Assembly: GCA_002415345.1 (NCBI GenBank)
Contig: DHXV01000002.1
Location: forward strand, 76,155-140,154
Direction: 5' to 3'
DNA from: Patescibacteria group bacterium UBA5147
GTDB taxonomy: Bacteria > Patescibacteriota > Saccharimonadia > UBA4664
Length of the DNA stretch: 64,000 nucleotides
In this document: positions 2,740 through 23,628 of the stretch, piece by piece
Layout of the letters: every line of letters starts with the position of its first letter
Position numbering within the stretch: position 1 is the stretch's first letter
Made by a program: the position numbers and the translations under genes
The notes under the pieces: model-generated
Told to the model about the DNA's origin: nothing
What the model saw: the letters and a program-made list of their open reading frames with translations, nothing else
Database searches by the model: none

Positions 2740-4821
<2,082 letters not shown>

Positions 4822-4837
4822 GGCCTATCTCAATTAA

Positions 4838-4863
4838 AAGGCCCGCTTCGGCGGGCCCTTTTG
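4838..4863 (+). terminator. Intrinsic terminator after fusA
   Basis: GGCCCGC-ttcg-GCGGGCC followed by CTTTTG. Confidence 0.75.
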
Positions 4864-5446
4864 TTAATAGACTTATGCTTGCAAGCTCTTTGACCAGCTA
4901 TTACACTGATTTCACGTCTAATTGATACGAATTGAGTTAGAAGTTCTTTTTTAAGCCACGCCAATAAAGGCAGCTCAGCGAGGCTGCATTGGCGGTACAC
5001 CCGCGGCTCGTTCTCCGCTCTTGTTCATACCAAGAGCGTACGCGACCGCAACCGGCTCCTAGGGTGGCCGGTATCTCGCGAGGACGTGAATTAGTAGGGG
5101 GTCGGTCCCCCGAGCATTCAGACGTTATGCGAGAGCGGTGGGTGCGGTTCGGACCATAAACAGGCGCACGGCGCAGCTGTAGTGCCCCGTCTGTTGGTTC
5201 GTTCCGCATCCACCTTGAACTTGGCTGCTCGCCAGAGCTGCCGTATGACTGCCGGAACGGCTTGGTACAATTCCCTGAGCCGAGTCGTTCCGGCACAACC
5301 CGTCGGGCGGCGGCGCACACCGAGGTGTCCCCCGCCCTGCTGCAGTTCTTGGAGCTGTAACTCCGAGGATAGTCGCCGTCCGGCCCATACCTTCATTGCC
5401 CTCTGCTGTTACAGCGGAGGGTTTCCTAGTTTAAGACCCCAGCCCT

Positions 5447-5475
5447 TTACAATTCGGGCGTAATTTGCCTATAAT
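5447..5475 (+). promoter_or_regulatory. Sigma70-like promoter for tuf (TTACAA-17-TATAAT)
   Basis: -35 TTACAA 5447-5452, 17-nt spacer, consensus -10 TATAAT 5470-5475; implies ~155 nt 5' leader. Confidence 0.45.
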
Positions 5476-5638
5476 ACGTAGGTCTGAAAGCGGACGATAT
5501 TTTTTTATTGTCCAAGCAAATATAAGGTTAACTATCCGGTTCTATGGCAGATAGCTGATGCGGCGCCTCACGGCACTAGCCGCTTTAAGGCCCACGGCCA
5601 CATTATCCATCTGGAATAGAACTAAAAAAGGAGTACGA

Positions 5639-6820
5639 ATGGCAACATTTGAGCGTAACAAGCCGCATCTTAACGTCGGTACCATGGGTCACGTCGACCA
5701 CGGCAAGACCACCCTCACCGCGGCTATCACAATGGTTCTGGCTAAGCATTTCCCATCAGACATCAACAAGGCCGTAAATTACGACCAGATCGACAATGCT
5801 CCTGAAGAGCGCTTGCGCGGTATTACCATCGCTACTTCCCACCAGGAGTACGAGAGCGAGAAGCGTCACTACGCCCACGTCGACATGCCAGGTCACGCCG
5901 ACTACGTCAAGAACATGATTACCGGTGCCGCTCAGATTGACGGTGCTATCCTCGTAGTTTCCGCCGCCGACGGCCCGATGCCTCAGACCCGCGAGCACAT
6001 TCTGCTAGCCAAGCAGGTTGGTGTTCCTTCGGTCCTCGTCTTCATGAACAAGATGGACATGGCCGACCCGGAGCTCGCCGAGCTAGTTGAGATGGAAATC
6101 CGCGAACTGCTCGAAAAGAACGGTTTCGACGAGAATGCCCCGATTATCAGCGGTTCCGCTCTTAAGGCCGTCGAAGGCGACGCCGATGCTGAGGCCAAGA
6201 TCCTCGAGCTGGTCAAGGCCATGGATGACTACTTCACCGACCCCGTCCGCGAAACCTCCAAGCCGTTCCTCATGCCGATCGAAGACGTCTTCTCAATCAA
6301 GGGCCGTGGAACCGTTGCTACCGGCCGTATCGAGCAGGGTGTCGTCAAAGTTAACGACTCGGTTGAAATCGTGGGTATCCGCCCAACCAAGACCACGACC
6401 GTAACCGGCGTCGAGATGTTCAAGAAATTGCTTCCTGACGCTCAGGCCGGTGACAACGTCGGAGCCTTGCTCCGCGGAATTGAGCGAACTGATATCGAGC
6501 GCGGCCAGGTTCTGGCTAAGCCCGGTTCGGTTACCCCGCACACCGACTTTGACGCTGAAGTCTACGTCCTGAGCAAAGACGAGGGCGGCCGCCACACCCC
6601 ATTCTTCAAGGGCTACAAGCCTCAGTTTTACATCCGCACCACTGACGTCACGGGTGCCGTAACTCTGCCGGAAGGTGTCGAGATGGTTATGCCAGGCGAC
6701 ACAATCAAGATGAAAGTTGAGCTTATTGCTCCAATCGCCATGGAAGAAGGCCTCCGCTTCGCTATCCGCGAAGGCGGCCGTACCGTTGGCGCTGGTGTCG
6801 TAACCAAAATCAACAAGTAG
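5639..6820 (+). CDS. tuf: Elongation factor Tu
   Basis: 394 aa from the ATG at 5639 (RBS AAAAAGGAG 7 nt upstream); [21 protein letters not shown] motifs. The ORF-track 5' extension (5558) is not supported. Confidence 0.97.
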
Positions 6821-6836
6821 TTTGACCACTACCGAT

Positions 6837-6866
6837 AAAAGAGCGGGCTTCGGCCCGCTCTTTTGT
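6837..6866 (+). terminator. Intrinsic terminator after tuf
   Basis: GAGCGGGC-ttcg-GCCCGCTC followed by TTTTGTT. Confidence 0.8.
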
Positions 6867-6891
6867 TGAGAGATCCAGCCGATAAGCATTC

Positions 6892-6920
6892 TTGTCAATT
6901 ATGACTATTAAGGTTATAAT
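6892..6920 (+). promoter_or_regulatory. Sigma70-like promoter for rpsJ (TTGTCA-17-TATAAT)
   Basis: -35 TTGTCA 6892-6897, 17-nt spacer, -10 TATAAT 6915-6920; ~88 nt leader to rpsJ. Confidence 0.45.
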
Positions 6921-7007
6921 CGCACCATTACCATTTAATTTGTACCGAGAACTCATCCGGTTAAACCCCGCGAAGAGGTTACGGTATCGCACCAGGAGAC
7001 CCAGTAC

Positions 7008-7340
7008 ATGGCAACAGCCGCCGATAAGACCCCCGAGAAGCAACGAATTCGTATTCGCCTTAAGGCTTATGACTCAAAAGTCATCGACCAGAGCGCCAAG
7101 CAGATCATCGACACCGCAATCCGCACGGGAGCCAAAGTAGCCGGCCCCATTCCGCTGCCGACCGAGCGCAACTCAATGACCGTGCTCCGCTCGCCCCACG
7201 TCTACAAGGACGCCCGTGAACAGTTCGAAATGCGCACCCACAAGCGCCTCATCGACATCACCGAGCCAACCCCCAAGACCATCGACGCCCTGATGAACCT
7301 CAACCTGCCGGCAGGTGTGGACATCGAAATTAAGATGTAA
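7008..7340 (+). CDS. rpsJ: 30S ribosomal protein S10
   Basis: 110 aa; [11 protein letters not shown]...[25 protein letters not shown] is typical S10. Confidence 0.95.
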
Positions 7341-7347
7341 TCTTACT

Positions 7348-7376
7348 TAAAAGCTCCGCTTAGGCGGAGCTTTTAA
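7348..7376 (+). terminator. Intrinsic terminator immediately after rpsJ
   Basis: AGCTCCGC-ttag-GCGGAGCT followed by TTT. It separates rpsJ from the downstream genes. Confidence 0.7.
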
Positions 7377-7391
7377 GTAAACTGGGAATAA

Positions 7392-8177
7392 ATGAAACAC
7401 CTTTCAAAGGTAACACGATTCACATATAGGCATCCGACTACTAGCGTTGTGGCAATCCTTATCGTATTTAGTGCGCTTTTCTTATACCTAGGTTTTCACA
7501 CGGCAGTCCATGCAAATCCAGCTGACCTCTATATCAACTTAGCGGCAGGTGGTATATTTTCCATCTTCGCATTACTATTTATTGAACTTTTTAGGGATAG
7601 ACAGCGCAGCTTTAGCGGCAAGGAGGGGCGTTTTGCCGCTACATCGGATGCTAATAGAATGAGCAGAATGCTTGTTGAGTGGGCAGCGGGAAACTTCGGC
7701 GAGTCAGTGCTCACTTACAAGATCGATCCAAATAATGAAGATATTTCTCGGAATCAAAATGCGATAGTGATGTCACAAAAAATGATGGCTCTATCAATGA
7801 TTAATGCTTTACGAGAATTTAGTCCAGGCAAATGGCAAATTCTACGTGATAACCTTATTGGGCTGAAAGGGCAGGTTAATGAATTCGCCGAGTACTATAA
7901 GGAGATGACCCCATTAGATGTTTATGGCAAATATCTGGAGGTAAGGCGATTGCACATGGGTATGGTTACGAGCTTTGCCCCGAACCCATTTAGCGATCTG
8001 CTCACGAAACCTGAGGATGAATGGGCTCATAACAAGTATGGTGTTGTTTATATGCGTCAACTTCGTGAAAACCAGTTAACTCAAATGGCTGAGATGTACG
8101 AGAAGTACATTTCGTCGCTAGTCAGCTTTCATCTGGCTGTAGTCTGCTGGTTTGACTTGGAGGATGGCCGCAAATAG
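7392..8177 (+). CDS. Hypothetical membrane-anchored protein (AT-rich gene)
   Basis: 261 aa; two N-terminal TM helices; local GC is clearly lower than the flanks; no recognisable domain. Confidence 0.4.
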   Translation: MKHLSKVTRFTYRHPTTSVVAILIVFSALFLYLGFHTAVHANPADLYINLAAGGIFSIFALLFIELFRDRQRSFSGKEGRFAATSDANRMSRMLVEWAAGNFGESVLTYKIDPNNEDISRNQNAIVMSQKMMALSMINALREFSPGKWQILRDNLIGLKGQVNEFAEYYKEMTPLDVYGKYLEVRRLHMGMVTSFAPNPFSDLLTKPEDEWAHNKYGVVYMRQLRENQLTQMAEMYEKYISSLVSFHLAVVCWFDLEDGRK

Positions 8178-8229
8178 CAAATCTAACTTTAGATTTGGTT
8201 CACGGGCATAGTGCCTGTTAATCTTCTGA

Positions 8230-8817
8230 TTAAATAAGAGGTGGCTCTGTGATTGTGTCTGTGATAGTCGCGTGTAAGTGTTGGGCGGAGGCCTGATATT
8301 TGCTTGGAGCGATTACAATGAGACGCTGCGCAAGAGGCAGATACAGCGCCCTGGTTTCTTCGTTTTTACGGATTTGCTTGGCTGGGCTGCATGAACCTAG
8401 CGTTCGCTGGTTATGCAGCCGGTCCGACAGCTTAATGATAAGCGTCTGCCAATCAGCCTTTTCTAATCCTGCGTAATAGTTGACCCCCGACTGCTTGGTA
8501 AGCAGGTCAAGACGGTCGGCGACTTCATCGCCGAAATTCACGCGTACCCGGTGGTCACTTAAGAGGAAGGTGTCTTCGCGCACGTCGTGGAGCAGGGCGG
8601 TAATGATGATTTTCTCATCGTAGACGTGCAACTCATCGATGAGGATCATCGCGACGGCCTTGGGGTGCTCAAAGTACCTCTCACCGCTGGAACGGGTTTG
8701 GCCGCGGTGGGCGTATTTGCTGAAGATGTAGGCTGCTTCGACAGCTTCCAACTCCAGGTGTGACATTGTAGGCGCGAGTCGGGCTAAAAATTCTGGTCGT
8801 CCGATTTTGTGGGTCAT
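8230..8817 (-). CDS. HD-domain (p)ppGpp hydrolase, SpoT/Mesh1-like small alarmone hydrolase
   Basis: Start ATG at 8817 with AAGGAG RBS. HD motif ALLHDVREDT and EHP... typical of the RelA/SpoT hydrolase domain. ~195 aa with no synthetase domain. Confidence 0.65.
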   Translation of the reverse strand: MTHKIGRPEFLARLAPTMSHLELEAVEAAYIFSKYAHRGQTRSSGERYFEHPKAVAMILIDELHVYDEKIIITALLHDVREDTFLLSDHRVRVNFGDEVADRLDLLTKQSGVNYYAGLEKADWQTLIIKLSDRLHNQRTLGSCSPAKQIRKNEETRALYLPLAQRLIVIAPSKYQASAQHLHATITDTITEPPLI

Positions 8818-8950
8818 GATATTCTCCTTGCCTTCGTTTCTCCGGAATCGAAAAAGAATAAAAAAGGCGGCTTGGAACAAGGAACGATTCCTTGTAGTAG
8901 CCGCAATAGACGCCTGATGGCCGCTGTCCTAATACAATGTGATTATAACA

Positions 8951-9358
8951 TTATGTGGCGTTACTAGCAATCGGCGGTGTCGGGTTTTCCTGTAAGAGTT
9001 CGAAATGAATCGCCAAGACCCCGTATTCAGCTTCTTCGGTAGCTGGGTATATGCCGCGATAAATTGTTATTCCGTCTGCAATGGATTTGGTACGCGGTAA
9101 CACTTGTTCCAGCCCGGTTAGCATAAGCATTCTTTCGAATGTCGGGAATGAGTCAACGAAAGTGATTTTCAATAGCGCACGGTTGGGAATTTCGCGAACC
9201 GTACCGTCTGGCAGCGTGACGTCCTCGCGTAAGTATATTAGATCACCTGGTTGGTACTGGCTGAACTTACCGCGATTGAGCCGACCTTCGACGGTCTTGG
9301 CTCCGGCTAGGATGTCGTTGATATATTCGGTCGAACGGCCAGCTTCAAAGATTTGCAT
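8951..9358 (-). CDS. ASCH-domain protein
   Basis: 135 aa; MQIFEAG...KTVEGRLNRGKF...GDLIYL resembles ASCH/PUA-like beta-barrel proteins. Confidence 0.55.
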   Translation of the reverse strand: MQIFEAGRSTEYINDILAGAKTVEGRLNRGKFSQYQPGDLIYLREDVTLPDGTVREIPNRALLKITFVDSFPTFERMLMLTGLEQVLPRTKSIADGITIYRGIYPATEEAEYGVLAIHFELLQENPTPPIASNAT

Positions 9359-9390
9359 TAGATTAGTATAACAAATATACGCAATGAAAG

Positions 9391-9418
9391 GGCCCTGTCG
9401 CTGTTAAGCGACAGGGCC
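9391..9418 (-). terminator. Perfect 11-bp hairpin (GGCCCTGTCGC/GCGACAGGGCC); likely terminator of the 9431..9646 gene
   Basis: Hairpin lies 12 nt downstream of the minus-strand stop, followed on the minus strand by CCTTTCATT. Confidence 0.5.
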
Positions 9419-9430
9419 GGGGTGGATGGG

Positions 9431-9646
9431 TTATTTACTCCCCTTGATGAAGAAGATTGTGCGGGCCTGTTCGCCGGGTTCGGGGTGGTGGCAGGTTTCG
9501 TGCGCGGTCGCAAAGTTCTGAAGGCAAACCTGGCGGTTGATCTCGAAGTTGTAGACATAGCCTGTGCCTGCCGTGAACAGGGAAAAAAATGCAAAGAGCG
9601 CGACCCAGAAGGATCGCGAGGGTCGTATCATCGCTTTCCGGGACAT
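9431..9646 (-). CDS. Small secreted/membrane protein (hypothetical)
   Basis: 71 aa; N-terminal hydrophobic signal-like segment WVALFAFFSLFTAG; followed by the hairpin terminator. Confidence 0.3.
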   Translation of the reverse strand: MSRKAMIRPSRSFWVALFAFFSLFTAGTGYVYNFEINRQVCLQNFATAHETCHHPEPGEQARTIFFIKGSK

Positions 9647-9815
9647 GAGAGCTCCAATGTCGAAGGTTCGGGACTGAAGATATTATATAACGTTTATGAT
9701 TGGAAGTCATTCTTTGTGGTCAGTACTTGCTGAATAGATTTGATGGATTGCATATGGCAAAAGAGGGCTATTTGGAGTAGAAATGACGCATAATCCCTTA
9801 AGCGAGGAATAAGCA

Positions 9816-10391
9816 ATGACTGAACTCGAAGCTTTCAAACGGGCGGACGCCTGTTTTCTGGCCGTATTAGGTAAGGTTGGCGAGCACCAATGGAAGGATC
9901 CTACACCGAACCCAGGGTGGAGTGTGACCGACTTGGCGGGGCATATTATGGAGGGAATCGTCTGGGTGGGGCACGTACTGTTAGGAGCGAGTATTGCGGC
10001 GGCCGGTGACAAATTCAGCGGCGACCTGTTGGGTGACGATCCTAAGGCTGCTGCGGAGCGGGCCTGCCGTGAGGCGGAAGCGGCCATAGATAAGACGGGC
10101 GACCTGGAAGCCATAGTGCATCTAAGCTATGGAGACGTCCCCGCCCGGACCTATTTGCGGCAGCAGATAATCGATATCACGATTCATACTTGGGACCTGG
10201 CGCGGGGCATTGGCGTCGACGAAAAATTAGACTCGGACCTGGTTGCCATAGTTTATGACTGGTTTGCGCCCGAAGCGGAGGGCTGGCGCGAAGCAGGCCT
10301 GCTGAAGCCAGCCGTTCCGGTTCCCGCCGATGCCGACCTCCAAACCAGGCTGCTCGCTTTATCAGGCCGCCAAGCCGTAATGGCGGATTAG
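9816..10391 (+). CDS. DinB-like protein, TIGR03086 / mycothiol-maleylpyruvate-isomerase N-terminal domain family
   Basis: 191 aa; motifs GWSVTDLAGHI and IHTWDLARG are typical of this family. Confidence 0.55.
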   Translation: MTELEAFKRADACFLAVLGKVGEHQWKDPTPNPGWSVTDLAGHIMEGIVWVGHVLLGASIAAAGDKFSGDLLGDDPKAAAERACREAEAAIDKTGDLEAIVHLSYGDVPARTYLRQQIIDITIHTWDLARGIGVDEKLDSDLVAIVYDWFAPEAEGWREAGLLKPAVPVPADADLQTRLLALSGRQAVMAD

Positions 10392-10494
10392 GTATATTAT
10401 GGGAGGACAGTATAGGAAACCCCGCCATGCATGAATCAAAGACCCTTATCCTCGCCTGCCGCCAGCCCGACGGAACATATGATGGTAAAAAAGT

Positions 10495-11058
10495 ATGACG
10501 ACAGTCTATTTCGATTATGCTTGCGAATATACCTACCGTCTCCAACGACTTTTGGATATGGCCGACGTTCAGGCGGACTGGCAACCTTTTTCTCTGGCGC
10601 AGGCCAAACGGGGGGAAACCGAAACTCCGGTTTGGAATCTTGCGGGTAGCGACCTTCCTGTGAGTGTGTTAGCCCTGGCCGGTCATGAATTTGTCAAAGC
10701 CCAGGGCGGTCCGGGTATCAAAGCTTACCGCCAGGAAGTCTCGCATTTGTTCCATGAAGTCGGCCACGAGCCTGACGCCGGCCAAATCTGGCATTTGGTT
10801 GAGAAGTTTACGGGTTACGCTAAAGCCGACCTCGATCTTGAGGGAGCGCTGGAGCGGGTTAAAACCAGTCATGAGTTAGCCGAAGCCAAACGGGTGTTCG
10901 ATACCCCGACGCTGTTTATCGACGAGAGCGACAAGCCGTACTTTATCCGGCTGGAGGCGATTCCCGAAACGCCACAGGCCGCTAAAGCCCTCTGGAAGTC
11001 GCTGCCAAAATCAGCCCATCATTTTCCGCGACCGATAACTATTGAGGCGGTGGACTAG
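10495..11058 (+). CDS. DsbA-like thioredoxin-fold protein (Rv2466c-like)
   Basis: 187 aa; N-terminal VYFDYACEYTYRL resembles the DSBA-like thioredoxin domain with a CxxT/CxxC-variant active site. Confidence 0.5.
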   Translation: MTTVYFDYACEYTYRLQRLLDMADVQADWQPFSLAQAKRGETETPVWNLAGSDLPVSVLALAGHEFVKAQGGPGIKAYRQEVSHLFHEVGHEPDAGQIWHLVEKFTGYAKADLDLEGALERVKTSHELAEAKRVFDTPTLFIDESDKPYFIRLEAIPETPQAAKALWKSLPKSAHHFPRPITIEAVD

Positions 11059-11154
11059 CAGGGGATTCAAGTTAATAGTCCGCAACATTTGGAGCTCTGC
11101 CCAATTAGTCTGTCGGCTATCTTATTTATGATGGTGTGGTAAGAGGAGAAGACG

Positions 11155-11427
11155 ATGCAATACACCGATACCAATGAGTATCTGCGGAGAATACTTATGC
11201 TTGAAGAGGTAGTACAACACCATCCGAAAATAATGGAGGCCGTGACCGATGGTGATAGAGTAATGTTGCAGCGGTATTTCCTCGGAGCAACTACGGCCGT
11301 TGATGTTACCGAGTATCGGCGTCAGGTAATAAAATCCGACCCCAAAATTGAAATTCAGGCAAACAAGGCCTACGAACGTTTTATGGCCGAAGCCGGCATG
11401 TCGGAGACTTTACTGCCTGTTCGATAG
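11155..11427 (+). CDS. Hypothetical protein
   Basis: 90-aa ORF in a compact intergenic slot; no domain recognised. Confidence 0.3.
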   Translation: MQYTDTNEYLRRILMLEEVVQHHPKIMEAVTDGDRVMLQRYFLGATTAVDVTEYRRQVIKSDPKIEIQANKAYERFMAEAGMSETLLPVR

Positions 11428-11520
11428 TATTGACACGATAACGAACGCCACCCGAAAGGGTGGCGTTTTCGTTTTGACGCAGTAAACCCCCGGAATCGAG
11501 GACCTACCGTGAGCCGGGGC

Positions 11521-11949
11521 TCAAGTTGATCTGGTTTTCCGGGGGCTAATTGGGATGTTCGGCACTAGGACGAACAGCGGACTGAGTTGGCCGGTGAAGC
11601 AGACGGTTGATGGGAATTCAACCTTCCGTTCAATAACTCGGCGTTGCTTCGGAGTAAATAGCATGCGATCGCGTTCGCCACGGTGCGCCTTTAAGAAAAA
11701 GGTTTTCCCTGACAAAAAGAGCACAGCTAATCCAAAGGACCGTTGAAGTACCAGACTTCCAGCGGTTGGGCTGGATAACTGCCGGATGACCGACAATACG
11801 TCTGCATCGTCGATCCCGACAAGACTTACCTCAGTTTGTTGTTTAAGGTAGGCGACCGCAAGTGCGTCAAGAATTCTGGATTTATCAAGCTCGGCCTGAG
11901 CGGCGAATTCTTGCTCGTAGGTCCGGTTGGGCCGGGTAATAGTTATCAC
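11521..11949 (-). CDS. Hypothetical protein
   Basis: 142-aa ORF; no domain recognised. Confidence 0.3.
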   Translation of the reverse strand: MITITRPNRTYEQEFAAQAELDKSRILDALAVAYLKQQTEVSLVGIDDADVLSVIRQLSSPTAGSLVLQRSFGLAVLFLSGKTFFLKAHRGERDRMLFTPKQRRVIERKVEFPSTVCFTGQLSPLFVLVPNIPISPRKTRST

Positions 11950-12113
11950 CGAATCTCATTTCATTTTCGGAGGACAGGGGCTACCGAGATTGCAGTTCGC
12001 AATCTGAGCATGGTTACAAATGTTAGCACGGGAGGGTATCTCTGTCAATAGTGACAATTAATTCCAACAGATATAAAACGAACACTTACCGAACGCCATG
12101 ATATACTATTACT

Positions 12114-13328
12114 ATGAATCTATTCGGTGAAATGAATCGGCCGTTGGCCGACAGGGTGAGGCCTCAAACTATCGACGAAGTGATCGGGCAAGGTCAAGTG
12201 GTCGGCGAGGGCCAGTTCCTGCGGACCATCGTGACTAACGGCATTCCGACGTCGCTGATTCTCTGGGGGCCGCCGGGAACCGGCAAGACGACGCTGGCCC
12301 GCATCATCGCGCGAGGCGGGGACTACGCTTTTGAAGAAATCTCCGCCGTTACCAGCGGTTTGCCGGACGTCAAGAAGGTGATCGAACGGTCCAAGGAACG
12401 CCGTCGGGCGGGCCAGACGACGCTGTTGTTCGTCGATGAAATCCATCGGTTCAACAAGGCCCAGCAAGACGCGTTCTTGCCACATATGGAAAACGGCACC
12501 ATCGTGCTGATTGGGGCGACAACCGAGAACCCGTCGTTTGAGGTCATTGGGCCGCTGTTGTCCCGCAGCCGGGTGGTGGTGCTGGAAAAATTAACAGTTC
12601 CACAGCTGGTGGCCATTTTGGACCGCGGGCTAAAGGAATTGGGCGGTCGGGCCATGAAGCCGGACGCCAAACAAATGCTGGCCGAGCTGGCCGGCGGCGA
12701 CGCACGGGTAGCTTTGGGCGGATTGGAAGCCGCCGCTACTCTGACATCGGGTGAAATAACCCTCGAACACGTCAAGCAGGCCATGCAGAAAACCGCACTG
12801 CGCTATGACAAGTCCGGCGAATACCACTACAACCTGATATCGGCTTACATCAAAAGCCTGCGCGGCTCGGCGGTGGACGCCGCTCTTCTGTATCTGGCGC
12901 GCATGCTCGAAAGCGGGGAAGACGCCAAGTTCATTGCCCGGCGGTTGGTGATTTTCGCCTCCGAGGATATCGGTACGGCCGACAACACCATGCTGACGCT
13001 GGCCGTCAGTACGTTCCAAGCCATCGAGCGCATCGGTATGCCCGAAGGCCGCATTATCCTGTCCCAGGCGACAGTGGCTCTGGCATTGGCGCCCAAGAAC
13101 CGCGACGCCTATGACGCCATCGGCCGGGCTATCGGCGCGGTCCAGAGCAATCCGGGCATGGATGTGCCGGCTCACCTCCGTAATGCTCCCACCAAACTCA
13201 TGAAAGAGCTGGAATACGGCAAGGGCTACCAGTGGGAACCGGGTTTTGAGCATCCCGACGGTTTCATGCCGACTCAAGTCCGAGGTCAAAAGTTTTATCG
13301 GCCGCACGACAAGAAATCGTCCAAATAA
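12114..13328 (+). CDS. rarA: Replication-associated recombination protein A (MgsA/RarA, AAA+ ATPase)
   Basis: 404 aa; Walker A GPPGTGKTT, Walker B LFVDEIHRFNK, and the C-terminal MgsA helical domain (KSLRGS...ALLYLARMLESGED). Confidence 0.9.
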   Translation: MNLFGEMNRPLADRVRPQTIDEVIGQGQVVGEGQFLRTIVTNGIPTSLILWGPPGTGKTTLARIIARGGDYAFEEISAVTSGLPDVKKVIERSKERRRAGQTTLLFVDEIHRFNKAQQDAFLPHMENGTIVLIGATTENPSFEVIGPLLSRSRVVVLEKLTVPQLVAILDRGLKELGGRAMKPDAKQMLAELAGGDARVALGGLEAAATLTSGEITLEHVKQAMQKTALRYDKSGEYHYNLISAYIKSLRGSAVDAALLYLARMLESGEDAKFIARRLVIFASEDIGTADNTMLTLAVSTFQAIERIGMPEGRIILSQATVALALAPKNRDAYDAIGRAIGAVQSNPGMDVPAHLRNAPTKLMKELEYGKGYQWEPGFEHPDGFMPTQVRGQKFYRPHDKKSSK

Positions 13329-13353
13329 AATAGCCCTCATAAACAGAGGGCTG

Positions 13354-14001
13354 TTAGGGGTTCCATTCGCGGATGAATTCGCCGCATGCGCGGCAGTATA
13401 GGTCTGCTTCCCGCAGTACCTCATTGAAGTTGCGCCATTCTACGCTTCCCTCACCGGCGCCGCAGTGAGGGCAACCGAACAGGGTATCTCTCTGAAATTG
13501 CGGGGTCGTACCAAGGCGTGCGGGCACTGCCTGATTGATAGCTGCGCCAATAAGTCCGTAAATCTCCCAGTCGTAAACTGCGGTCACCGATTTGACCTTG
13601 TCGTGTTCGCTCATAACATAAATGTAATGAGGGAGTCCGCTCCATTCACCGAAATGAACGACGATTTCATTAATACGGCTTGGGGCTGCCGCTGGACTGT
13701 CGACCAGGATCCGCTCCATAATAAGTCCGATCCCGGTATGGGCGGGATGCTCATTATGCCGCCACGCCCGGATGATCTGCGGGATGCATTCGGCAGTTAG
13801 CGCGGTAAAGGTGTTTTTTCCGCAATGTGAGCAGAACAGTGCCGCTTGACCGAGTCCCAGCATCCCGGTAAACGGAAGCATGAAGTCGTCCGGAGGTGCC
13901 ACACACCATTTGCAGGGTTTCAGCGGTATAGAATCTTTGACGAGTCGTTCGACGGCGATGGCGTCTTGGAGCTGGAAATCCAGGGTGATTAATCCGGTCA
14001 T
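13354..14001 (-). CDS. Cys-rich protein with multiple Zn-ribbon-like CxxC pairs (hypothetical)
   Basis: 215 aa; CKWC, CSHCG, CPHCG, CRACG motifs. Confidence 0.4.
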   Translation of the reverse strand: MTGLITLDFQLQDAIAVERLVKDSIPLKPCKWCVAPPDDFMLPFTGMLGLGQAALFCSHCGKNTFTALTAECIPQIIRAWRHNEHPAHTGIGLIMERILVDSPAAAPSRINEIVVHFGEWSGLPHYIYVMSEHDKVKSVTAVYDWEIYGLIGAAINQAVPARLGTTPQFQRDTLFGCPHCGAGEGSVEWRNFNEVLREADLYCRACGEFIREWNP

Positions 14002-14108
14002 TATGGCCTCCGGTTGATGTTAAAGGACTAATTCCACCCTAGGCGGAATTGTCACGGACTGGTAGCAAATTATTTTGTACTTCACGGATGTGGAGTATCT
14101 TAATACAC

Positions 14109-14768
14109 ATGCACTGGATTGCCCGTCACATCCTGAAGCGGCTGGCTTTTGCCGACCATTTGACCTACTCGGAGCTGAAACCGGATCAGGTTGAAGGCAA
14201 TCTGTTCCAATACTATGCCCGGAGCTTAGAGAAGGAAGGCCTGATAACCCGCGGTGTGGACGGATATGCTCTGACTTCCGCCGGTAAGGCAGTTGTGGCC
14301 GATTTGAGCCAAACCCAGCTCATGCGGCGCCACGAGCAGCCTCAGCCTATGGTGGCGGCTTTTGTCAGGAGAGGAACACAGATTCTGCTGTTCGAATGGA
14401 AGCGCCATCCTTACCGAGGGATGGTCAGTCTGTCCATGGGTCGACACGGAATCGAGATGGATTTGGTTACGGCAGCCGCCGATCAGTTGTTCTGGAAAGC
14501 CGGGCTGGCAGGTACGGCTGAATATATCGGTCAAATTGAATTAATTTCCCACGACGGCGATAATCGCGAGGCGCACACCCTCATTAATGTAGTTGAGTTT
14601 AGCGATGTAGCGGAAGTAGCAGCAACTGATGGTTTGACCGGACAATATTTCTGGTCGGAAATGGACCGGACTAAGACCGATACCTTGGTACCGGGATTCA
14701 GTGAAATTTTGGATTGGTGCAACGATGATGCACGACCGGCGTATTTATTGATCAAAACAACCCGATAG
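14109..14768 (+). CDS. Hypothetical protein, possible winged-helix N-terminus
   Basis: ORF 14049..14768; internal Mets at 14088 and 14109 are plausible starts; LKPDQVEGNLFQYYARSLEKEGLITRG is wHTH-like. Confidence 0.35.
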   Translation: MHWIARHILKRLAFADHLTYSELKPDQVEGNLFQYYARSLEKEGLITRGVDGYALTSAGKAVVADLSQTQLMRRHEQPQPMVAAFVRRGTQILLFEWKRHPYRGMVSLSMGRHGIEMDLVTAAADQLFWKAGLAGTAEYIGQIELISHDGDNREAHTLINVVEFSDVAEVAATDGLTGQYFWSEMDRTKTDTLVPGFSEILDWCNDDARPAYLLIKTTR

Positions 14769-14863
14769 CCCGTTATAGCGTAATTTATTTGGAACATACA
14801 CCAGTACCAACGCAACGCCGTTCGTCATAGGCTAGGAGTAAGCACTATAACGAGGGGAACAGC

Positions 14864-15412
14864 ATGGATTTAACTGACATCAAAATTGCTATTATCGCGA
14901 CGGATTTATTTGAAGAGACCGAGCTGATTGAACCCAAAAAAGCCTTCGAGGAGGCCGGCGCCGAAGTAACGGTCATAGCTCCGGACGAAGGCGATATCCA
15001 GGGGGTGAACCATCACGAAGATGGCCGCAGCGTGGCAGTAGATCAGACGTTGGACGGTGCTGATCCTGCCGATTACGACGCCGTATTTCTGCCCGGGGGC
15101 GTCATGAACGCCGACGCACTTCGGGTAAATCAAAAAGCCCAGGCCTTCGTTCAGGCCATGGACGCCGATGACAAGCCGCTGGGAGTAATTTGCCACGGCT
15201 CATGGCTGCTCGTCGATGCCGGTCTGGTTGACGGCCGCAGTATGACAAGCTCTCACGCCATGGCTGAAGATTTAAAGAATGCCGGGGCCGAGTGGGCGGA
15301 TAAAGAGGTGGTGGTAGATGGCAATTGGGTTTCTTCCCGCAAGCCGGATGACCTGCCGGCCTTTATCCGGGCCTTCATGGAACTTACTGAAGACTCAGCC
15401 GAAGAAGAGTAG
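14864..15412 (+). CDS. DJ-1/PfpI family protein (class I glutamine amidotransferase-like)
   Basis: 182 aa; nucleophile elbow VICHGSWLL, acidic C-terminus. Confidence 0.8.
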   Translation: MDLTDIKIAIIATDLFEETELIEPKKAFEEAGAEVTVIAPDEGDIQGVNHHEDGRSVAVDQTLDGADPADYDAVFLPGGVMNADALRVNQKAQAFVQAMDADDKPLGVICHGSWLLVDAGLVDGRSMTSSHAMAEDLKNAGAEWADKEVVVDGNWVSSRKPDDLPAFIRAFMELTEDSAEEE

Positions 15413-15446
15413 TGTCAAATCATTATTCTTATGCTTTAATATAGCT

Positions 15447-15707
15447 ATGAAGAAATCAACCGGCACCAAACACATCGCCAAAGAAACCGATAGCGTTTAT
15501 TTCTTAAAAATCCTGGTGTTTTTTGTGCTGGGTTCGATTTGGGTCAAATACCACGGCGTCGTAGTTTTCCCCGCCGGTTTGGTTTTAGGGGTAGCCCTGA
15601 CGGCTCACGACCACTTTGCAATTGACCGTAAGGTGGAATACGCGGTCCTTATTGTCTCAGCGCTGCTTACACTCGCCACGGGCTACGTAGTTTTCGTCGT
15701 CGTTTAA
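15447..15707 (+). CDS. Small membrane protein (2-3 TM, hypothetical)
   Basis: Start at the internal ATG 15447 (MKKSTG...) of ORF 15318..15707; hydrophobic. Confidence 0.4.
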   Translation: MKKSTGTKHIAKETDSVYFLKILVFFVLGSIWVKYHGVVVFPAGLVLGVALTAHDHFAIDRKVEYAVLIVSALLTLATGYVVFVVV

Positions 15708-15710
15708 GGC

Positions 15711-15920
15711 TTAGAAGTCTTCGAGGATCGTTTTTAACACGTAGGCCATTGTTGCAGCCATGGCTACGAATTGTAATATATCGATGATGCCACGACCGAC
15801 CGTCATATTTATCGGTAGAAACCCGTAGGCGAAGCTCAGGACAATGACCACGCTCATCAGCAGGCTAAAATTGCTGATGAAGGATTTAGTTCGCGCGCGA
15901 GCCGTAAAGCGGTTATACAT
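15711..15920 (-). CDS. Small membrane protein (2 TM, hypothetical)
   Basis: 69 aa; hydrophobic; convergent with the previous gene. Confidence 0.4.
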   Translation of the reverse strand: MYNRFTARARTKSFISNFSLLMSVVIVLSFAYGFLPINMTVGRGIIDILQFVAMAATMAYVLKTILEDF

Positions 15921-16004
15921 CAGCTCATTCTAGCATATATCACCGCTTATGTCAAGATTTGGGTTCTCTAGGTGACAGTTGCGCCTTTTACCCTGGCCTA
16001 GGTG

Positions 16005-16034
16005 TTGACAGAGCTCAGCCAGATAAGCTATAGT
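16005..16034 (+). promoter_or_regulatory. Sigma70-like promoter for the rplC operon (TTGACA-18-TATAGT)
   Basis: Consensus -35 TTGACA 16005-16010, -10 TATAGT 16029-16034; ~125 nt leader before rplC. Confidence 0.45.
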
Positions 16035-16159
16035 CACATGGTATTTGTTCGCCGCAACTGATGCGGTGCAATCAATCTAGGTAGCAAGCAGGTCTGATAG
16101 ATACCACTTGTAACCTGGAATTTACGTTTGTCGCAGATGTCGCATAACAAGGATCAATC

Positions 16160-16816
16160 ATGAAGGCCCTCCTCGGAATAAAACTCGGCATGACCCAGAT
16201 CTTCAGTGAAGACGGTAACGTTATGCGTCTGACCCTCGTCCAGGCTGGTCCCTGCACGGTGACCCAGGTCAAGACAGTCGACTCGGACGGTTACAACGCC
16301 GTCCAGCTTGGTTTTGGCGACGCCAAACACCAGCCAAAGCCTCAGGCCGGACATCTCAAAGACTCAGGCAGCAATGCTAAGACCATGCAGGAAGTCCGCA
16401 TCGACGACGTCCAGGCCGGCCACCCCAAGGCCAAAGCCCTACAGGCCACGGCTGACGAGGCCATGGCCTTAACGGTCGGGGCGACTATCGACGTCAACTC
16501 GTTCGAGGTCGGCGATGCAGTTCAGGTTACGGGAACTTCCAAAGGCAAGGGCTTTGCCGGTACCATCAAGCGCCACAACTTCTCCCGCGGACCCAAGACC
16601 CACGGTTCCCGCAACTACCGCGCCCCCGGTTCGATCGGCTCCGGTTATCCTGAGCACGTTTTCAAGGGTATGAAAATGGCCGGCCGCATGGGTCACGATC
16701 AGGTTACCGTCAAGGGGCTGAAGGTAATGGTAATTGACGCCGAGCAGAACATCCTGGGTATTTCCGGTGCTATTCCGGGCCCCAAGCGTGGCACAGTAAT
16801 GATTAAGGGATTCTAA
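16160..16816 (+). CDS. rplC: 50S ribosomal protein L3
   Basis: 218 aa; LLGIKLGMTQIF...GKGFAG...RMAGRMG is typical L3. Confidence 0.95.
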   Translation: MKALLGIKLGMTQIFSEDGNVMRLTLVQAGPCTVTQVKTVDSDGYNAVQLGFGDAKHQPKPQAGHLKDSGSNAKTMQEVRIDDVQAGHPKAKALQATADEAMALTVGATIDVNSFEVGDAVQVTGTSKGKGFAGTIKRHNFSRGPKTHGSRNYRAPGSIGSGYPEHVFKGMKMAGRMGHDQVTVKGLKVMVIDAEQNILGISGAIPGPKRGTVMIKGF

Positions 16817-17451
16817 TGGTAAAAGCGGTATCATTCTCCAGGACCGGCACCAAGCAAGAAACAGCTGCCAAGCTTAACGATGCTATCTTCGGTGTCGAGG
16901 CTAACCACGAACTTATCGGGCAGGCATATCGTACGTATATGGCTAACGGCCGCAGTGCCGGTGCCTCTACGCTCAAGCGCGGCGAAGTCAGAGGCGGCGG
17001 TAAGAAGCCATGGCGTCAGAAAGGCACCGGCCGAGCGCGCGTCGGTTCCATTCGTGTGCCTAACTGGCGCGGCGGCGGTGTGGTCTTCGGACCGACCGGC
17101 AACGAAAACTTTACTTTGGCATTCCCGGTCAAGATGAAACGGGCTGCTATTCGCCAGGCATTGAGCCTGCAGGCCACATCCGGCCTGATCAGCGTCATCG
17201 ACGCCTACGAGTCCACCGACGGCAAGGTCAAAGCGACACAGGCTCTGTTGACCAAGCTTGAGCTGGATGGCAATATCCTTCTGGTCGTCAATGAAAAGAC
17301 CGACCTTGTGCTGCGCGCAACTAACAACGTCGCCGGCCTGAACGTCGTCTCCGCAAATTATCTGAACGTATTTACCATCATGAACGCCGATCATATCGTC
17401 TTCACCAAGGACGCGCTTGAGACCGTTGACGGATGGTTGGGAGAGAAATAA
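16816..17451 (+). CDS. rplD: 50S ribosomal protein L4
   Basis: 211 aa; KPWRQKGTGRARVGSIRVPNWRGGGVVFGP is typical L4. Confidence 0.95.
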   Translation: MVKAVSFSRTGTKQETAAKLNDAIFGVEANHELIGQAYRTYMANGRSAGASTLKRGEVRGGGKKPWRQKGTGRARVGSIRVPNWRGGGVVFGPTGNENFTLAFPVKMKRAAIRQALSLQATSGLISVIDAYESTDGKVKATQALLTKLELDGNILLVVNEKTDLVLRATNNVAGLNVVSANYLNVFTIMNADHIVFTKDALETVDGWLGEK

Positions 17452-17731
17452 TGAGCCAGGTAACCCTAACTCCAAAGATCAGCGAGAAGGCAATCGCCCT
17501 CGCCGAACAGAATATCTACGTCTTTGAAGTACCAGTCGGTACCAATAAGATTGAAGTCAAGAAGGCCGTTGAGGCCGCTTTCAAGGTCTCGGTCATCGAC
17601 GTCAACATGGTCGTCGTCAAAGGCAAGCTCAAACGCTTCAAGCAAGTCATGGGCCGCCAGCGTGACACTAAAAAGGCCATGGTCAAGGTTAAAGCCGGTC
17701 AGAGCATAACCCTGTTCGAGGTGGCAAAATA

Positions 17732-17732
<1 letters not shown>
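17451..17732 (+). CDS. rplW: 50S ribosomal protein L23
   Basis: Start ATG at 17451 (MSQVTL...), overlapping the rplD stop; KNKIEVKKAVEAAFKVSV is typical L23. Confidence 0.9.
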
Positions 17733-18583
<851 letters not shown>

Positions 18584-18856
18584 ATGAGTCGTTCACTCAA
18601 AAAAGGACCATACGTAGACGAGCGACTGCAGGGCCGCGTTGAAGCCCTGACGGCCGGTGATAAGACCGTGCTTAAGACTTGGTCGCGTGACAGTACCGTT
18701 TCCCCGGAAATGGTCGGCTTCACGATCGCTGTTCACAACGGTCGCATTCATATGCCGGTCTTCGTCTCGGAAAACATGGTCGGCCACAAGCTCGGTGAGT
18801 TTGCCCCCACCCGTAAGTTCCGTACCCACGGCGGTAAGTTAGCGAAGGGTAAATAA
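18584..18856 (+). CDS. rpsS: 30S ribosomal protein S19
   Basis: 90 aa; SLKKGPYVD...TWSRDSTV...HNGR is typical S19. Confidence 0.95.
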
Positions 18857-19320
18857 TGAAGACCAGCGCCACAGCTAAGTTCATTGGGACATCCGCTCGC
18901 AAGACCGGACTTGTCGCTGCCCTTATTCGTGGTCGTCGCGCAATCGACGCCCAGACTATTTTGCGCAATACCGACAAACGCGCGACCATCCCGGTAGGCA
19001 AAGCTTTGGCCAGTGCCATCGCCAACGCCGAGAACAACAACAACTCACGTCTAGCCGACCTCGTTATCGAGAGCATCCTTATCGGACCTGGTCCATCGCT
19101 CAAGCGTTCCCGGCCTCGCGCCAAGGGCAGCTCCTCGGCTATCCTTAAGCGCTCGAGCCACATCACGGTCGTCGTGTCCGACGGTAAGCCGGAAGTATCG
19201 GCCAAGGCCGTCACTGCGCCAGTAGCTTCAACGGAAGCCGCTCCTGCAATCGAGACCAAAACAGCCGACGCTAAGGTTAAAGCGCCTCGCAAGACGGCAG
19301 CTAAGAAGGAGGCTAAATAA
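18856..19320 (+). CDS. rplV: 50S ribosomal protein L22 with Ala/Lys-rich C-terminal extension
   Basis: 154 aa; N-terminal L22 core (ARKTGLVAALIRG...) plus a low-complexity tail. Confidence 0.9.
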   Translation: MKTSATAKFIGTSARKTGLVAALIRGRRAIDAQTILRNTDKRATIPVGKALASAIANAENNNNSRLADLVIESILIGPGPSLKRSRPRAKGSSSAILKRSSHITVVVSDGKPEVSAKAVTAPVASTEAAPAIETKTADAKVKAPRKTAAKKEAK

Positions 19321-19946
19321 TGGGACAGAAAATCAATCCACGCAGCATGCGCCTGCAGATCGACCACGACTGGCAGTCACACTGGTACGCCGACCGCGAT
19401 TACGCGACCTTCCTGATCCAGGACCTCAAGCTGCGTGCCGCCGTCTCCAAGATGCTTAACAAGCGCGCTGGCGTCGCCCGTATCGACATTGAACGTTCAC
19501 CTGGCCAGCTCATCGTTACCATCCATACATCCAAGCCCGGCGTTGTCATCGGCCGCGGCGGTTCCGGTGCCGAAGCCCTCAAGACCATGCTGGCGAAAAT
19601 CGCCCTGGGTCCGGTCAAGGTTTCCATCGAAGAAGTCAAGAAGCCGGAAACCAACGCCATGCTCGTCGCCGAGAACATCGCCGGTCAGCTGGAGCGCCGT
19701 ATATCTTTCCGCCGCGCGATGAAGATGTCAGTTGAAAACGCCATGAAGAGCGGCGCCCTCGGTGCCAAGGTGACCATCGCCGGCCGCCTCAACGGCACGG
19801 AAATGGCTCGTCGCGAGACCGTGACGCAGGGCAGCGTCCCATTGCACACGCTCCGCGCCGACATCGATTACGCCAACGCTCTGGCTCGGACCACTTTCGG
19901 CGTCATCGGCGTCAAGGTCTGGGTCTATAAAGGCACGAAGTTTTAG
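19320..19946 (+). CDS. rpsC: 30S ribosomal protein S3
   Basis: 208 aa; MGQKINP..., KH domain, GRLNGTEMAR motif. Confidence 0.96.
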   Translation: MGQKINPRSMRLQIDHDWQSHWYADRDYATFLIQDLKLRAAVSKMLNKRAGVARIDIERSPGQLIVTIHTSKPGVVIGRGGSGAEALKTMLAKIALGPVKVSIEEVKKPETNAMLVAENIAGQLERRISFRRAMKMSVENAMKSGALGAKVTIAGRLNGTEMARRETVTQGSVPLHTLRADIDYANALARTTFGVIGVKVWVYKGTKF

Positions 19947-19955
19947 GAATTTATT

Positions 19956-20381
19956 ATGTTACTACCAAAGAAAACTAAATACCGCAAGCAAATGAAGCTG
20001 CGCAACAACGGTAACGCCACTCGTGGTACCGAAATTGCGTTCGGCTCATACGGCCTCAAGGCTGAAACCGCCGAGCGCATTACCAGCCGTCAGATCGAGG
20101 CTGCCCGTCGTGCCATGACCCGTTACGTAAAGCGTGGCGGTAAGATCTGGATCCGTATCTTCCCCGATACCCCAATCACCAAGAAGCCGGCCGAAGTCCG
20201 CATGGGTAGCGGTAAGGGTGCAGTCGACCATTACGCTGCCAAGGTTAAGCCCGGCCGCATCATGTTCGAGATGGACGGCGTTACCGAGGAAGTCGCCAAA
20301 GAGGCAATGCGTTTGGCCGCCCACAAGCTGCCGGTCCGCACCCGCTTCATTGTAAAGCACGTCCCGGGAGAGGCAGAATAA
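19956..20381 (+). CDS. rplP: 50S ribosomal protein L16
   Basis: 141 aa; [12 protein letters not shown]...IWIRIFPD is typical L16. Confidence 0.96.
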
Positions 20382-20587
20382 TGAAACTTCAAGAGATCAT
20401 CAAGAAAAACGACCAGGAACTAGCCGAGTTGCTATCTGGTGCACGCTCCGACTTGGCCAAGGCCATAATCGACAGCCGTACCAAGGAAATCCGTGACGTC
20501 AAGCAGCTTGGCCGATTAAAGAAAACGGTAGCCCGCGCCCTGACGATCACTCGTGAGCGCGAAATCGCCAAGCAGGAGCAAGCATAA
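20381..20587 (+). CDS. rpmC: 50S ribosomal protein L29
   Basis: 68 aa coiled-coil; position between rplP and rpsQ. Confidence 0.9.
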
Positions 20588-20838
20588 TGATACGTACACT
20601 ACGTGGGACGGTTGTCTCCGACAAGATGGACAAGACGGTGGTCGTCGCTGTTTCCACTTTGAAGGAACACCCGATTTACCGCAAGAAATATAAAGTAACG
20701 ACCAAGTTCAAGGCCCACGACGAAAACAACGAGTGCAAAGAGGGCGATCTGGTAGAGATCACCGAGACTCGTCCGATCAGCCGTGACAAGCGTTGGAACG
20801 TGGCCCGCAAGATGTCGGCCAAGGACATGGAGGCGTAA
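20587..20838 (+). CDS. rpsQ: 30S ribosomal protein S17
   Basis: 83 aa; [14 protein letters not shown]...[15 protein letters not shown] is typical S17. Confidence 0.95.
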
Positions 20839-20839
20839 G

Positions 20840-21208
20840 ATGATTCAAGCTGAAACACGACTCAAAGTTGCCGACAACTCCGGCGCCAAGGACCTCTACT
20901 GCATCAAGGTATTGGGTGGTTCACGCCGCCGTTACGCCGGTGTCGGTGATATCATCACCTGCAGCGTGAAGTCGGCCTTGCCCGGCGCCGCCGTCAAGAA
21001 AAAAGACATCGTCCGGGCGGTCGTCGTCCGTACCATTAAAGAAACCAAGCGCGCCGACGGCTCGAGTATCCGCTTTGACGAGAACGCCGCCGTGCTGATT
21101 ACCAAAGACGGCCAGCCGCGCGGTACCCGTATCTTCGGACCGATTGCCCGCGAGCTGCGCGAAGGCGGTTATATGAAGATAATTTCGCTCGCACCGGAGG
21201 TATTGTAA
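20840..21208 (+). CDS. rplN: 50S ribosomal protein L14
   Basis: Start ATG 20840 ([17 protein letters not shown]); 122 aa; the ORF-track 5' extension is rejected. Confidence 0.96.
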
Positions 21209-22154: not shown

Positions 22155-22339
22155 TGGCACGAACTTCAATGATCGTTAAAGCCGCACGTAAGCCGAAGTT
22201 CTCGACTCGAAAAGTGAACCGGTGCCAGGTGTGCGGTCGTCCACATGGTTATATTCGAAAATTTGCGCTCTGCCGTATCTGCTTCCGTGAGTTCGCCTCA
22301 CGCGGTCAGATTCCAGGCGTAACTAAGGCAAGTTGGTAA
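22154..22339 (+). CDS. rpsN: 30S ribosomal protein S14 type Z (zinc-binding)
   Basis: Start ATG 22154; 61 aa; [20 protein letters not shown] zinc ribbon. Confidence 0.93.
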
Positions 22340-22350
22340 AGGAGATGGGA

Positions 22351-22737: not shown

Positions 22738-22738
22738 G

Positions 22739-23278: not shown

Positions 23279-23282
23279 GATC

Positions 23283-23627: not shown

Positions 23628-23628
23628 G

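Follow-up and report, generated by a model that had tools for sequence, protein, structure and literature searches.

In archaea the gene for uS10 always lies apart from the uL3-uL4-uL23(-uL2) genes (PMC10833476), and glaucophyte plastids have two separate clusters, rps12-rps7-(fusA)-tufA-rps10 and rpl3-rpl23-rpl2-... (PMC6330054). In E. coli, the S10 operon's leader mediates both L4-responsive transcription attenuation and translational repression (Zengel and Lindahl, in PMC3616713). Structured RNAs have also been described at the head of operons that begin with rplC: the Archaeoglobi L4 motif is a candidate ribosomal protein leader before rplC (PMC7247131), and conserved structures have been proposed 5′ of rplC in cyanobacteria (PMC12873609). 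Here, we analyze 64,000 nt of DNA (the window) from UBA5147, a member of the class Saccharimonadia, in which rpsJ, encoding ribosomal protein S10, and rplC, encoding L3, are 8,819 nt apart from stop to start; gene identities were checked by Pfam. We conclude that the rpsJ gene of Saccharibacteria is very probably not the first gene of the rplC-led operon, that this split is typical of the lineage and that the two genes belong to separate units.

The rpsJ-rplC junction in Saccharibacteria and other phyla

In a classical S10 operon, rpsJ stands immediately 5′ of rplC within one unit. The window is arranged otherwise, with about 15 open reading frames (ORFs) between the two genes, five of them on the opposite strand. 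An S10 query of a genome collection kept 80 loci, one from Saccharibacteria and 79 from other phyla, the latter serving as controls; a single Saccharibacteria locus was kept because S10 is too conserved. In 79/79 of the control loci, rplC lies no more than 600 nt from rpsJ, in agreement with the original prediction that rpsJ directly precedes rplC in most bacteria. In the Saccharibacteria lineages that were retrieved, rpsJ is apart from rplC in 13/13 cases, by 0.85 kb to >10 kb, and the identity of L3 to that of the window ranges from 79% down to 54%. A break in every one of the 13 lineages, compared to adjacency in all 79 loci outside, identifies the split as the lineage-typical state. The distances between the two genes are listed below, where loci other than the window carry L numbers.

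L100: 0.85 kb (850 nt), with one opposite-strand gene
L099: 3.9 kb
L102: 4.7 kb
L103: 5.1 kb
L096: 5.9 kb
L091: 6.1 kb
L092 (complete genome CP064960.1, 1.32 Mb): 6.2 kb
L095: 6.9 kb
Window: 8.8 kb
L090: 9.7 kb
L097 and L101: >10 kb
L001: >2.2 kb (contig ends)

The block from rplC to secY has the same order, and no interruption, in any of the Saccharibacteria loci. The original prediction had read the window as a rearrangement of a conserved gene order. The split is real, and its reading as a rearrangement of this particular genome is refuted by the 13/13 lineages that share it. A synteny comparison had been proposed as the check, with a lineage-typical arrangement among related genomes named as the outcome that would speak against a rearrangement, and the relatives have exactly that arrangement. 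We found no earlier description of the Saccharibacteria rpsJ/rplC split in the open-access literature. As to the relatives themselves, the closest S10 among species-representative genomes comes from a Candidatus Saccharibacteria metagenome-assembled genome (82% identity), followed by matches of at most 76% from Firmicutes and Actinobacteria, and for the L3 homologs at 74-100% identity, the source labels read Saccharimonadia, Saccharimonadales or Saccharibacteria.

Promoters and terminators of the two units

The elements that delimit the two units in the window are as follows.

6892-6920, + strand: predicted rpsJ promoter, TTGTCA-17-TATAAT (consensus scan, 11/12 positions)
6943-6986, + strand: putative rpsJ 5′ leader hairpin (comparison of the window, L101 and TM7x)
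7008-7340, + strand: rpsJ (ribosomal protein S10/NusE), 110 aa (Ribosomal_S10 PF00338, 1.8e-38)
7343-7380, + strand: predicted rpsJ intrinsic terminator (perfect 17-nt arms, 4-nt loop)
16005-16034, + strand: predicted rplC operon promoter, TTGACA-18-TATAGT (consensus scan, 11/12 positions)
16077-16131, + strand: rplC leader element (hairpin 16077-16118, U-rich tract 16121-16131)
16160-16816, + strand: rplC (Pfam)
16816-17451, + strand: rplD (Pfam)
16160-29242, + strand: S10-spc-alpha cluster from rplC to rplQ, uninterrupted (ORFs and Pfam)

The arms of the rpsJ terminator, 7343-7359 and 7364-7380, form a perfect inverted repeat flanked by an A-run and a U-run, and its G+C core begins 8 nt past the rpsJ stop codon, which is where the original prediction had placed a terminator. 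With a UUUU tail and a predicted folding energy of -31 kcal/mol, the hairpin has the layout of an intrinsic terminator, and it looks bidirectional. An equivalent terminator hairpin, again with a U-run, stands behind rpsJ in 8/9 Saccharibacteria loci, L100 among them.

The predicted promoter at 6892-6920, also as first proposed, aligns with a promoter that has been used experimentally, the P(Tm7x rpsJ) of N. lyticus TM7x, which reads TTGATA-17-TATAAT followed by CGAGAACTC...AGAGGTTACG. According to Table S4 of the study concerned, the TM7x rpsJ fragment drove the hygromycin-resistance gene hph in Southlakia epibionticum, and its searched passages also describe the use of the TM7x tuf promoter and terminator regions and of a fusA terminator (PMC10633639). 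As far as these passages go, the one-gene-per-unit layout of the window has experimental support in the TM7x fragments, which come from a relative in culture. The promoter is followed by a hairpin, UACCG-AGAACUC...GAGGUUA-CGGUA, that is conserved in the window, L101 and TM7x; promoter and hairpin together lie at 6885-7007 in the window and at 9880-10000 in L101. The basal stem of the hairpin varies in a compensatory manner (UACCG/CGGUA versus UCUCG/CGAGA), with double changes in 6/16 pairs; with three sequences, the case for a conserved structure is only suggestive. The closer relatives L091, L092, L095 and L096 have a different rpsJ upstream region, with the promoter TTGACA-18-TTAAAT.

On the other side of the gap, the predicted rplC promoter is part of a 43-nt block, GTTGACA-N9-CAGATAAGCTATAGTCACATGGTATTT, which hardly varies among the closer relatives, even though their L3 proteins are only 74-79% identical. 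A TTGACA-18-TAnAnT sequence precedes rplC in all lineages, including L099, L100, L102 and L103. The block has no second copy in the window, where a loose likeness 5′ of rpsJ is not significant, and a metagenome-wide scan for it returned 2 contigs, both already known. The rplC leader measures ~120 nt. Both promoter sites are better than chance matches: the rplC promoter and leader are conserved in every relative, and the rpsJ promoter aligns with that of TM7x. An rplC gene 8.8 kb downstream of rpsJ, with its own promoter and leader, had thus been correctly described. Judged by these signals, transcription would stop after rpsJ and start again at 16035-16045, and the terminator, the promoter and the opposite-strand genes between them uphold the proposal that rpsJ and rplC are separate transcription units.

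A conserved structure in the rplC leader

In the window, the rplC leader spans 16035-16159, and its hairpin consists of an outer stem, CUAGG/CCUGG, and a core, AGG-UC[variable stem-loop]GA-(A/U)A-CC, and is followed by a U-rich tract. The element occurs 5′ of rplC in 12/12 lineages that have sequence there, including those with an L3 identity of only 54-62%. Its positions in relatives include the following.

L090: 9911-9975
L099: 14107-14176
L100: 11064-11131
L102: 14957-15022
L103: 15340-15404

We quantified the conservation of the structure by comparing its alignment to controls. RNAalifold found compensatory changes in 5/14 pairs. In the alignment, 94% of the cells pair, compared to 85% in column shuffles (0/500 reach this value) and 31-53% in slid-partner controls, and the covariation score is 0.35, compared to 0.19 in shuffles (again 0/500). 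The counts of covarying pairs and of pair types are not significant (85 and 84 of 500 shuffles). The sequence that flanks the element cannot be aligned across lineages, yet the structure is kept.

A covariance model was then trained on 11 sequences, with L092 left out, and searched against 1.69 Mb. It recovers the L092 element at its expected place (E about 0.001), finds nothing in the 79 S10 loci from other phyla (1.5 Mb) and nothing more in the window, and has one extra match, at E 0.52, inside L092. In L091 (829 kb) and L092 (1.32 Mb), we observed that tuf, rpsJ and rarA seem to be split by frameshifts (L091 293-1466; L092 2209-3873 and 6683-7839). These are probably indel errors of long-read assemblies, and they account for missing gene calls in both loci and for a lower trust in the leader sequence of L092.

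Neither the rpsJ leader nor the rplC leader matches a family in Rfam 15, whether at the gathering threshold or at E <= 5, and an Rfam search of 4800-16400 at E <= 5 returned only chance matches on terminator hairpins. A crude search of the E. coli 16S and 23S rRNAs for a mimic of the core (GG-stem-NA-CC) gave several loose matches, for example at 23S 880-898, none of them convincing. As a conserved 5′ untranslated region (UTR) structure with covariation support, the rplC element has the structural feature expected of a ribosomal protein leader. By analogy with the L4 precedent in E. coli, its hairpin and U-tract may act as an attenuator or operator that responds to a ribosomal protein of the operon, and we regard it as a candidate for such a role. 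The motif appears to be a family separate from the published rplC-leader candidates.

In one sub-clade of the relatives (L090 at 9958-9975, L091, L092, L096 and L097), a conserved TTATTTATGTAA follows the U-tract; the window does not have it. The TTATTTATGTAA sequence includes a start-stop mini-ORF, ATG-TAA, which is placed after the hairpin and ahead of the rplC ribosome-binding site.

Contents of the gap

Between the rpsJ terminator and the rplC promoter, the window contains the following features.

7392-8177, + strand: AT-rich gene of 261 aa (mem261), no Pfam match
8230-11949, both strands: variable accessory block, from HD_4 to the 142-aa ORF (Pfam, relatives' loci)
8230-8880, - strand: HD_4 (RelA/SpoT-type HD) hydrolase (Pfam)
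8951-9358, - strand: ASCH (Pfam)
Within 8230-11949, between ASCH and MDMPI_N, - strand: 71-aa ORF
9816-10391, + strand: MDMPI_N/DinB_2 (DinB-like) (Pfam)
10495-11058, + strand: DSBA-like, weak match only (E 7e-4, below the cut-off)
Within 8230-11949, after the DSBA-like gene, + strand: 90-aa ORF
Within 8230-11949, last of the accessory block, - strand: 142-aa ORF (h142)
12114-13328, + strand: rarA/mgsA, AAA+ replication-associated recombination protein (Pfam), GC3 0.73, similar to the core genes
13354-14001, - strand: Zn-ribbon-like protein of 215 aa (Zn215), weak matches only
14049/14109-14768, + strand: NUDIX-related ORF of 219/239 aa, ~30% identity to the NUDIX genes of L099 and L100
14864-15412, + strand: DJ-1/PfpI (Pfam)
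15447-15707, + strand: h86, 86 aa, three hydrophobic segments
15711-15920, - strand: h69, hydrophobic protein of 69 aa, own putative promoter TTGACA-17-TAGAAT at 15955-15927

Pfam bears out the gene list that had been given for the gap, with weak matches only for the DsbA-like and Zn-ribbon proteins. The sole large gene that recurs is rarA, present in the gaps of 8 related loci. A counterpart of h86 is found between rarA and rplC in the loci of 8 relatives, one of which, L099, has a weak match only; MDMPI_N has a counterpart in three relatives' loci, and DJ-1, the 90-aa ORF and h69 have counterparts in L095 only. Six genes (mem261, HD_4, ASCH, the DsbA-like gene, h142 and Zn215) have no counterpart in the relatives' loci.

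The gene that follows rpsJ, at 7392-8177, had been called an AT-rich membrane-protein gene, an apt description: its G+C content (GC) is 0.434, and its product has two hydrophobic segments at the N-terminus. At third codon positions (GC3), its G+C content is 0.447, compared to about 0.70 in fusA, tuf, rpsJ and rplC, and the composition of the window dips at 7-9 kb. This gene is probably a recent horizontal acquisition. Pfam scans of the gap found no integrase, transposase or other recombinase domain, and the gap contains no tRNA and has no meaningful flanking direct repeats. We rejected a genomic island or mobile element, for which the recombinase, the tRNA and the flanking repeats are missing and a clearly foreign composition is confined to the first gene. 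In our reading, the gap is not a single mobile element but a terminator-to-promoter boundary at which genes can be gained and lost piece by piece.

The elongation factor side of the junction

Upstream of rpsJ, the window carries the genes of the two elongation factors.

2740-4821, + strand: fusA (EF-G) (Pfam), stand-alone unit
4840-4857: terminator-like hairpin, then a T-run, after fusA (terminator scan)
5446-5475, + strand: tuf promoter-like site, TTTACA-18-TATAAT (consensus scan, 11/12 matches)
5639-6820, + strand: tuf (EF-Tu) (Pfam); ORF open from 5558; 393 aa called in other assemblies
~6837-6866: hairpin with a T-run 3′ of tuf (sequence)

In the window, rpsJ (start 7008) is directly downstream of tuf (end 6820) on the same strand. 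The hairpin with a T-run 3′ of tuf and the separate rpsJ promoter speak against co-transcription of the two genes there, as far as such signals can be read from DNA. Spacers of only 10-31 nt separate tuf from rpsJ in the deep lineages L001, L099, L100, L102 and L103 and speak for co-transcription in those genomes, whereas 2-5 genes stand between tuf and rpsJ in L091, L095, L096 and L101.

Farther upstream, no rpsL-rpsG precedes fusA in the window or, in the longer contig L081, in the 5.7 kb before fusA, and the claim that fusA here lacks a preceding rpsL-rpsG is borne out over both. The junction of rpsG with fusA is intact only in L103, which keeps rpoBC-rpsL-rpsG-fusA contiguous; a gap of 2.7-4.5 kb separates rpsL-rpsG from fusA in L001, L099 and L102. 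Between fusA and tuf, 1-4 genes are found in L099, L100, L102 and L103. We also observed that each of the four junctions along rpoBC-rpsL-rpsG, fusA, tuf, rpsJ and rplC holds insertions specific to a lineage in at least one of the Saccharibacteria lineages, and that a NUDIX gene and small reverse-strand ORFs recur 5′ of fusA (L099-L103 and L001, versus the window clade).

Proposed organization and alternative explanations

We propose that rpsJ belongs on the elongation factor side of the junction. Deeper lineages have it close behind tuf, with a canonical intrinsic terminator after it, and the cluster from rplC to secY would start afresh, from its own conserved sigma-70-type promoter and a structured leader. 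DNA could then be inserted at the junction with neither unit disturbed, an insertion that would be tolerated because the junction is a terminator-to-promoter boundary, and different lineages have gathered different accessory genes. In the species of the window, a terminator and a promoter would also have come between tuf and rpsJ; consequently, fusA, tuf and rpsJ would each be single-gene units. More tentatively, it is possible that the detachment of rpsJ came with two lineage-specific cis-regulatory RNAs, an L4-like rplC attenuator that arose independently of that of E. coli and a separate rpsJ leader for the independent control of S10/NusE.

Several points weigh against this organization. 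Promoters and terminators were called from matches to a consensus together with conservation. The relatives were picked by sequence similarity, not as a designed phylogenetic sample, and the Saccharibacteria are the only class of the Candidate Phyla Radiation (CPR) that was covered. The identical contigs described below may come from one population or from related data sets, and would then speak for independence of the assembler more than for biological independence. As for the rplC leader, its hairpin is not a canonical terminator and was not called as one by the terminator scan; its U-tract starts 0-3 nt past a stem with large internal loops.

A recent rearrangement or insertion in this genome could have broken an ancestral rpsJ-rplC operon, and the six gap genes without a counterpart, together with the low GC3 of the gene next to rpsJ (0.45), indicate that part of the 8.8 kb is recent. 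However, the split is present in all 13 lineages, to an L3 identity as low as 54%; rarA and h86 are shared residents of the gap, the rplC promoter and leader are conserved, a terminator follows rpsJ, and neither integrase nor transposase, flanking tRNA or direct repeats mark an insertion. These observations make a genome-specific break very improbable: only the gap content is recent, not the break itself. Nor would a misassembly or chimera, joining two loci at 7.3-7.4 kb or 16.0-16.2 kb, find support in the data, apart from the suspicion that the dip in composition at 7-9 kb could raise. Thirteen contigs, drawn from JGI, ENA, NCBI (GCA_002429365.1) and Logan assemblies, encode the S10 protein. 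Four other contigs (L081, L083, L084 and L085) are 100% identical to the window and collinear with it over the 9.6 kb between 6800 and 16400, which include both junctions, and three more (L082, L086 and L087) match the first 5.0-5.2 kb up to the contig end, with a lone 1-nt gap in one case (99.98%). One of the contigs is 267 kb long, and the same architecture is seen in CP064960.1 (1.32 Mb) and in contigs of 829 kb and 525 kb. The continuity of the assembly, whose verification had been recommended, therefore holds at both junctions, and the question is settled because the relatives share the architecture. The locus is not a misassembly, an explanation that retains almost no probability.

It is also conceivable that one long transcript reads from rpsJ through the gap into rplC, with the promoter and terminator matches being incidental. 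The consensus scans were permissive, returning 21 promoter-like sites (14.5 expected) and 30 terminator-like sites (18.5 expected). Yet such a transcript would have to cross five opposite-strand genes and a perfect 17-bp stem with a U-run that recurs after rpsJ in 8/9 loci, and it would leave unexplained a nearly invariant rplC promoter in genomes whose L3 proteins have diverged to 74-79% identity, as well as the activity as a promoter of the homologous fragment from upstream of TM7x rpsJ, as given in the searched passages of PMC10633639. We consider read-through highly improbable. The rplC leader hairpin, in turn, might not be regulatory at all, serving as an RNA-stability or processing element or being kept by recent common descent. 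Its alignment has only 11-12 sequences, and the pair and pair-type counts do not exceed those of shuffles. Against this, compensatory changes keep the structure where the flanks are unalignable; the element is in every case placed after the promoter and ahead of the first gene's ribosome-binding site, with a U-rich tract behind it; and structured rplC leaders have also been reported in cyanobacteria and Archaeoglobi (PMC12873609, PMC7247131). A non-regulatory hairpin is, in our judgment, rather unlikely.

Other features of the window

Three further regions of the window deserve mention. At 26346-26439, a match to Rfam Alpha_RBS, the S4-binding operator of the alpha operon, overlaps the start of rpsM and scores 38.4 bits, compared to a gathering threshold of 38. 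Alpha_RBS has been reported as narrowly distributed in Gammaproteobacteria (PMC3616713); in a CPR genome, such a match either is a false positive at the borderline or merits a check.

At 33693-34594, the tRNA genes Thr(UGU)-Tyr-Thr(GGU) form a cluster, and Trp(CCA) comes some 0.5 kb after it; the gene of a 698-aa protein with NHL/GDSL-lipase character follows. In many bacteria, Thr-Tyr-Thr-Trp tRNAs precede tuf and secE-nusG-rplK, and their placement here is another sign of the broken-up state of classical translation-gene neighbourhoods in this genome.

From about 47600 to 61900, large ORFs without a Pfam match accompany a VirB4-like AAA_10 ATPase (54731-57409), and the same run includes two SLT lytic transglycosylases (49062-49820 and 60612-61916) and a VanY domain. 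By its appearance, the region is a cell-envelope cluster related to type IV secretion or to competence.

Implications

The value of the split itself is mostly practical and descriptive; it is a known kind of arrangement, of modest interest when framed as such. S10 belongs to the set of 16 'syntenic' ribosomal proteins with which CPR genomes are placed in phylogenies and bins are checked. The Saccharibacteria S10 gene can be >10 kb from that of L3 and consequently will often be missing from the ribosomal block on fragmented contigs. The rpsJ-rplC boundary tolerates insertion, which makes it a candidate neutral site for engineering Saccharibacteria. The TM7x rpsJ promoter tool carries the rpsJ leader, and this could affect how the tool behaves.

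The most novel feature of the locus is the rplC leader, which is conserved; the rpsJ leader can be named with it, although more tentatively. To our knowledge, almost no regulatory RNA has been described in the phylum of the Saccharibacteria, and the two leaders are candidates for addition to the very few regulatory RNAs of this lineage. If they prove true, both would be new RNA families.

Comparison with known systems

An experimental counterpart is the TM7x rpsJ promoter, which shares with the window homologous -35 and -10 elements and the leader hairpin CGAGAACUC...AGAGGUUACG. The searched passages of the study that used it (PMC10633639) treat the fragment only as a strong promoter and discuss neither operon organization nor leader structure. 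The rplC leader resembles the S10 leader of E. coli in being a structured leader before the operon of L3, L4, L23 and L2, with a hairpin and then a U-rich tract. In contrast, the E. coli leader precedes rpsJ and not rplC, and the two have no similarity in sequence or in Rfam. With the Archaeoglobi and cyanobacterial candidates, it shares the situation of a conserved 5′ UTR RNA in an rplC-led operon from which rpsJ is detached; it differs from them in that it has no Rfam 15 match at E <= 5, where some of the published candidates are presumably included.

The gene arrangement itself is closest to that of plastids, which free-living cyanobacteria share. As in plastids, the rpsJ of Saccharibacteria comes after tuf, and the cluster led by the L3 gene starts separately. 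Unlike in plastids, tuf and rpsJ of the window are parted by a predicted terminator and promoter, and rpsL-rpsG is not beside fusA; the Saccharibacteria clusters also stay near each other and co-oriented, 0.85 to >10 kb apart, with lineage-variable accessory genes in the interval, instead of lying dispersed over the genome. In archaea, the break occurs at the same point between S10 and L3, in a different domain, and we infer no common descent; the resemblance may reflect a natural operon boundary at this junction. The S10/L3 junction is an already known break point, and the Saccharibacteria are one more bacterial lineage in which rpsJ stands on the side of tuf.

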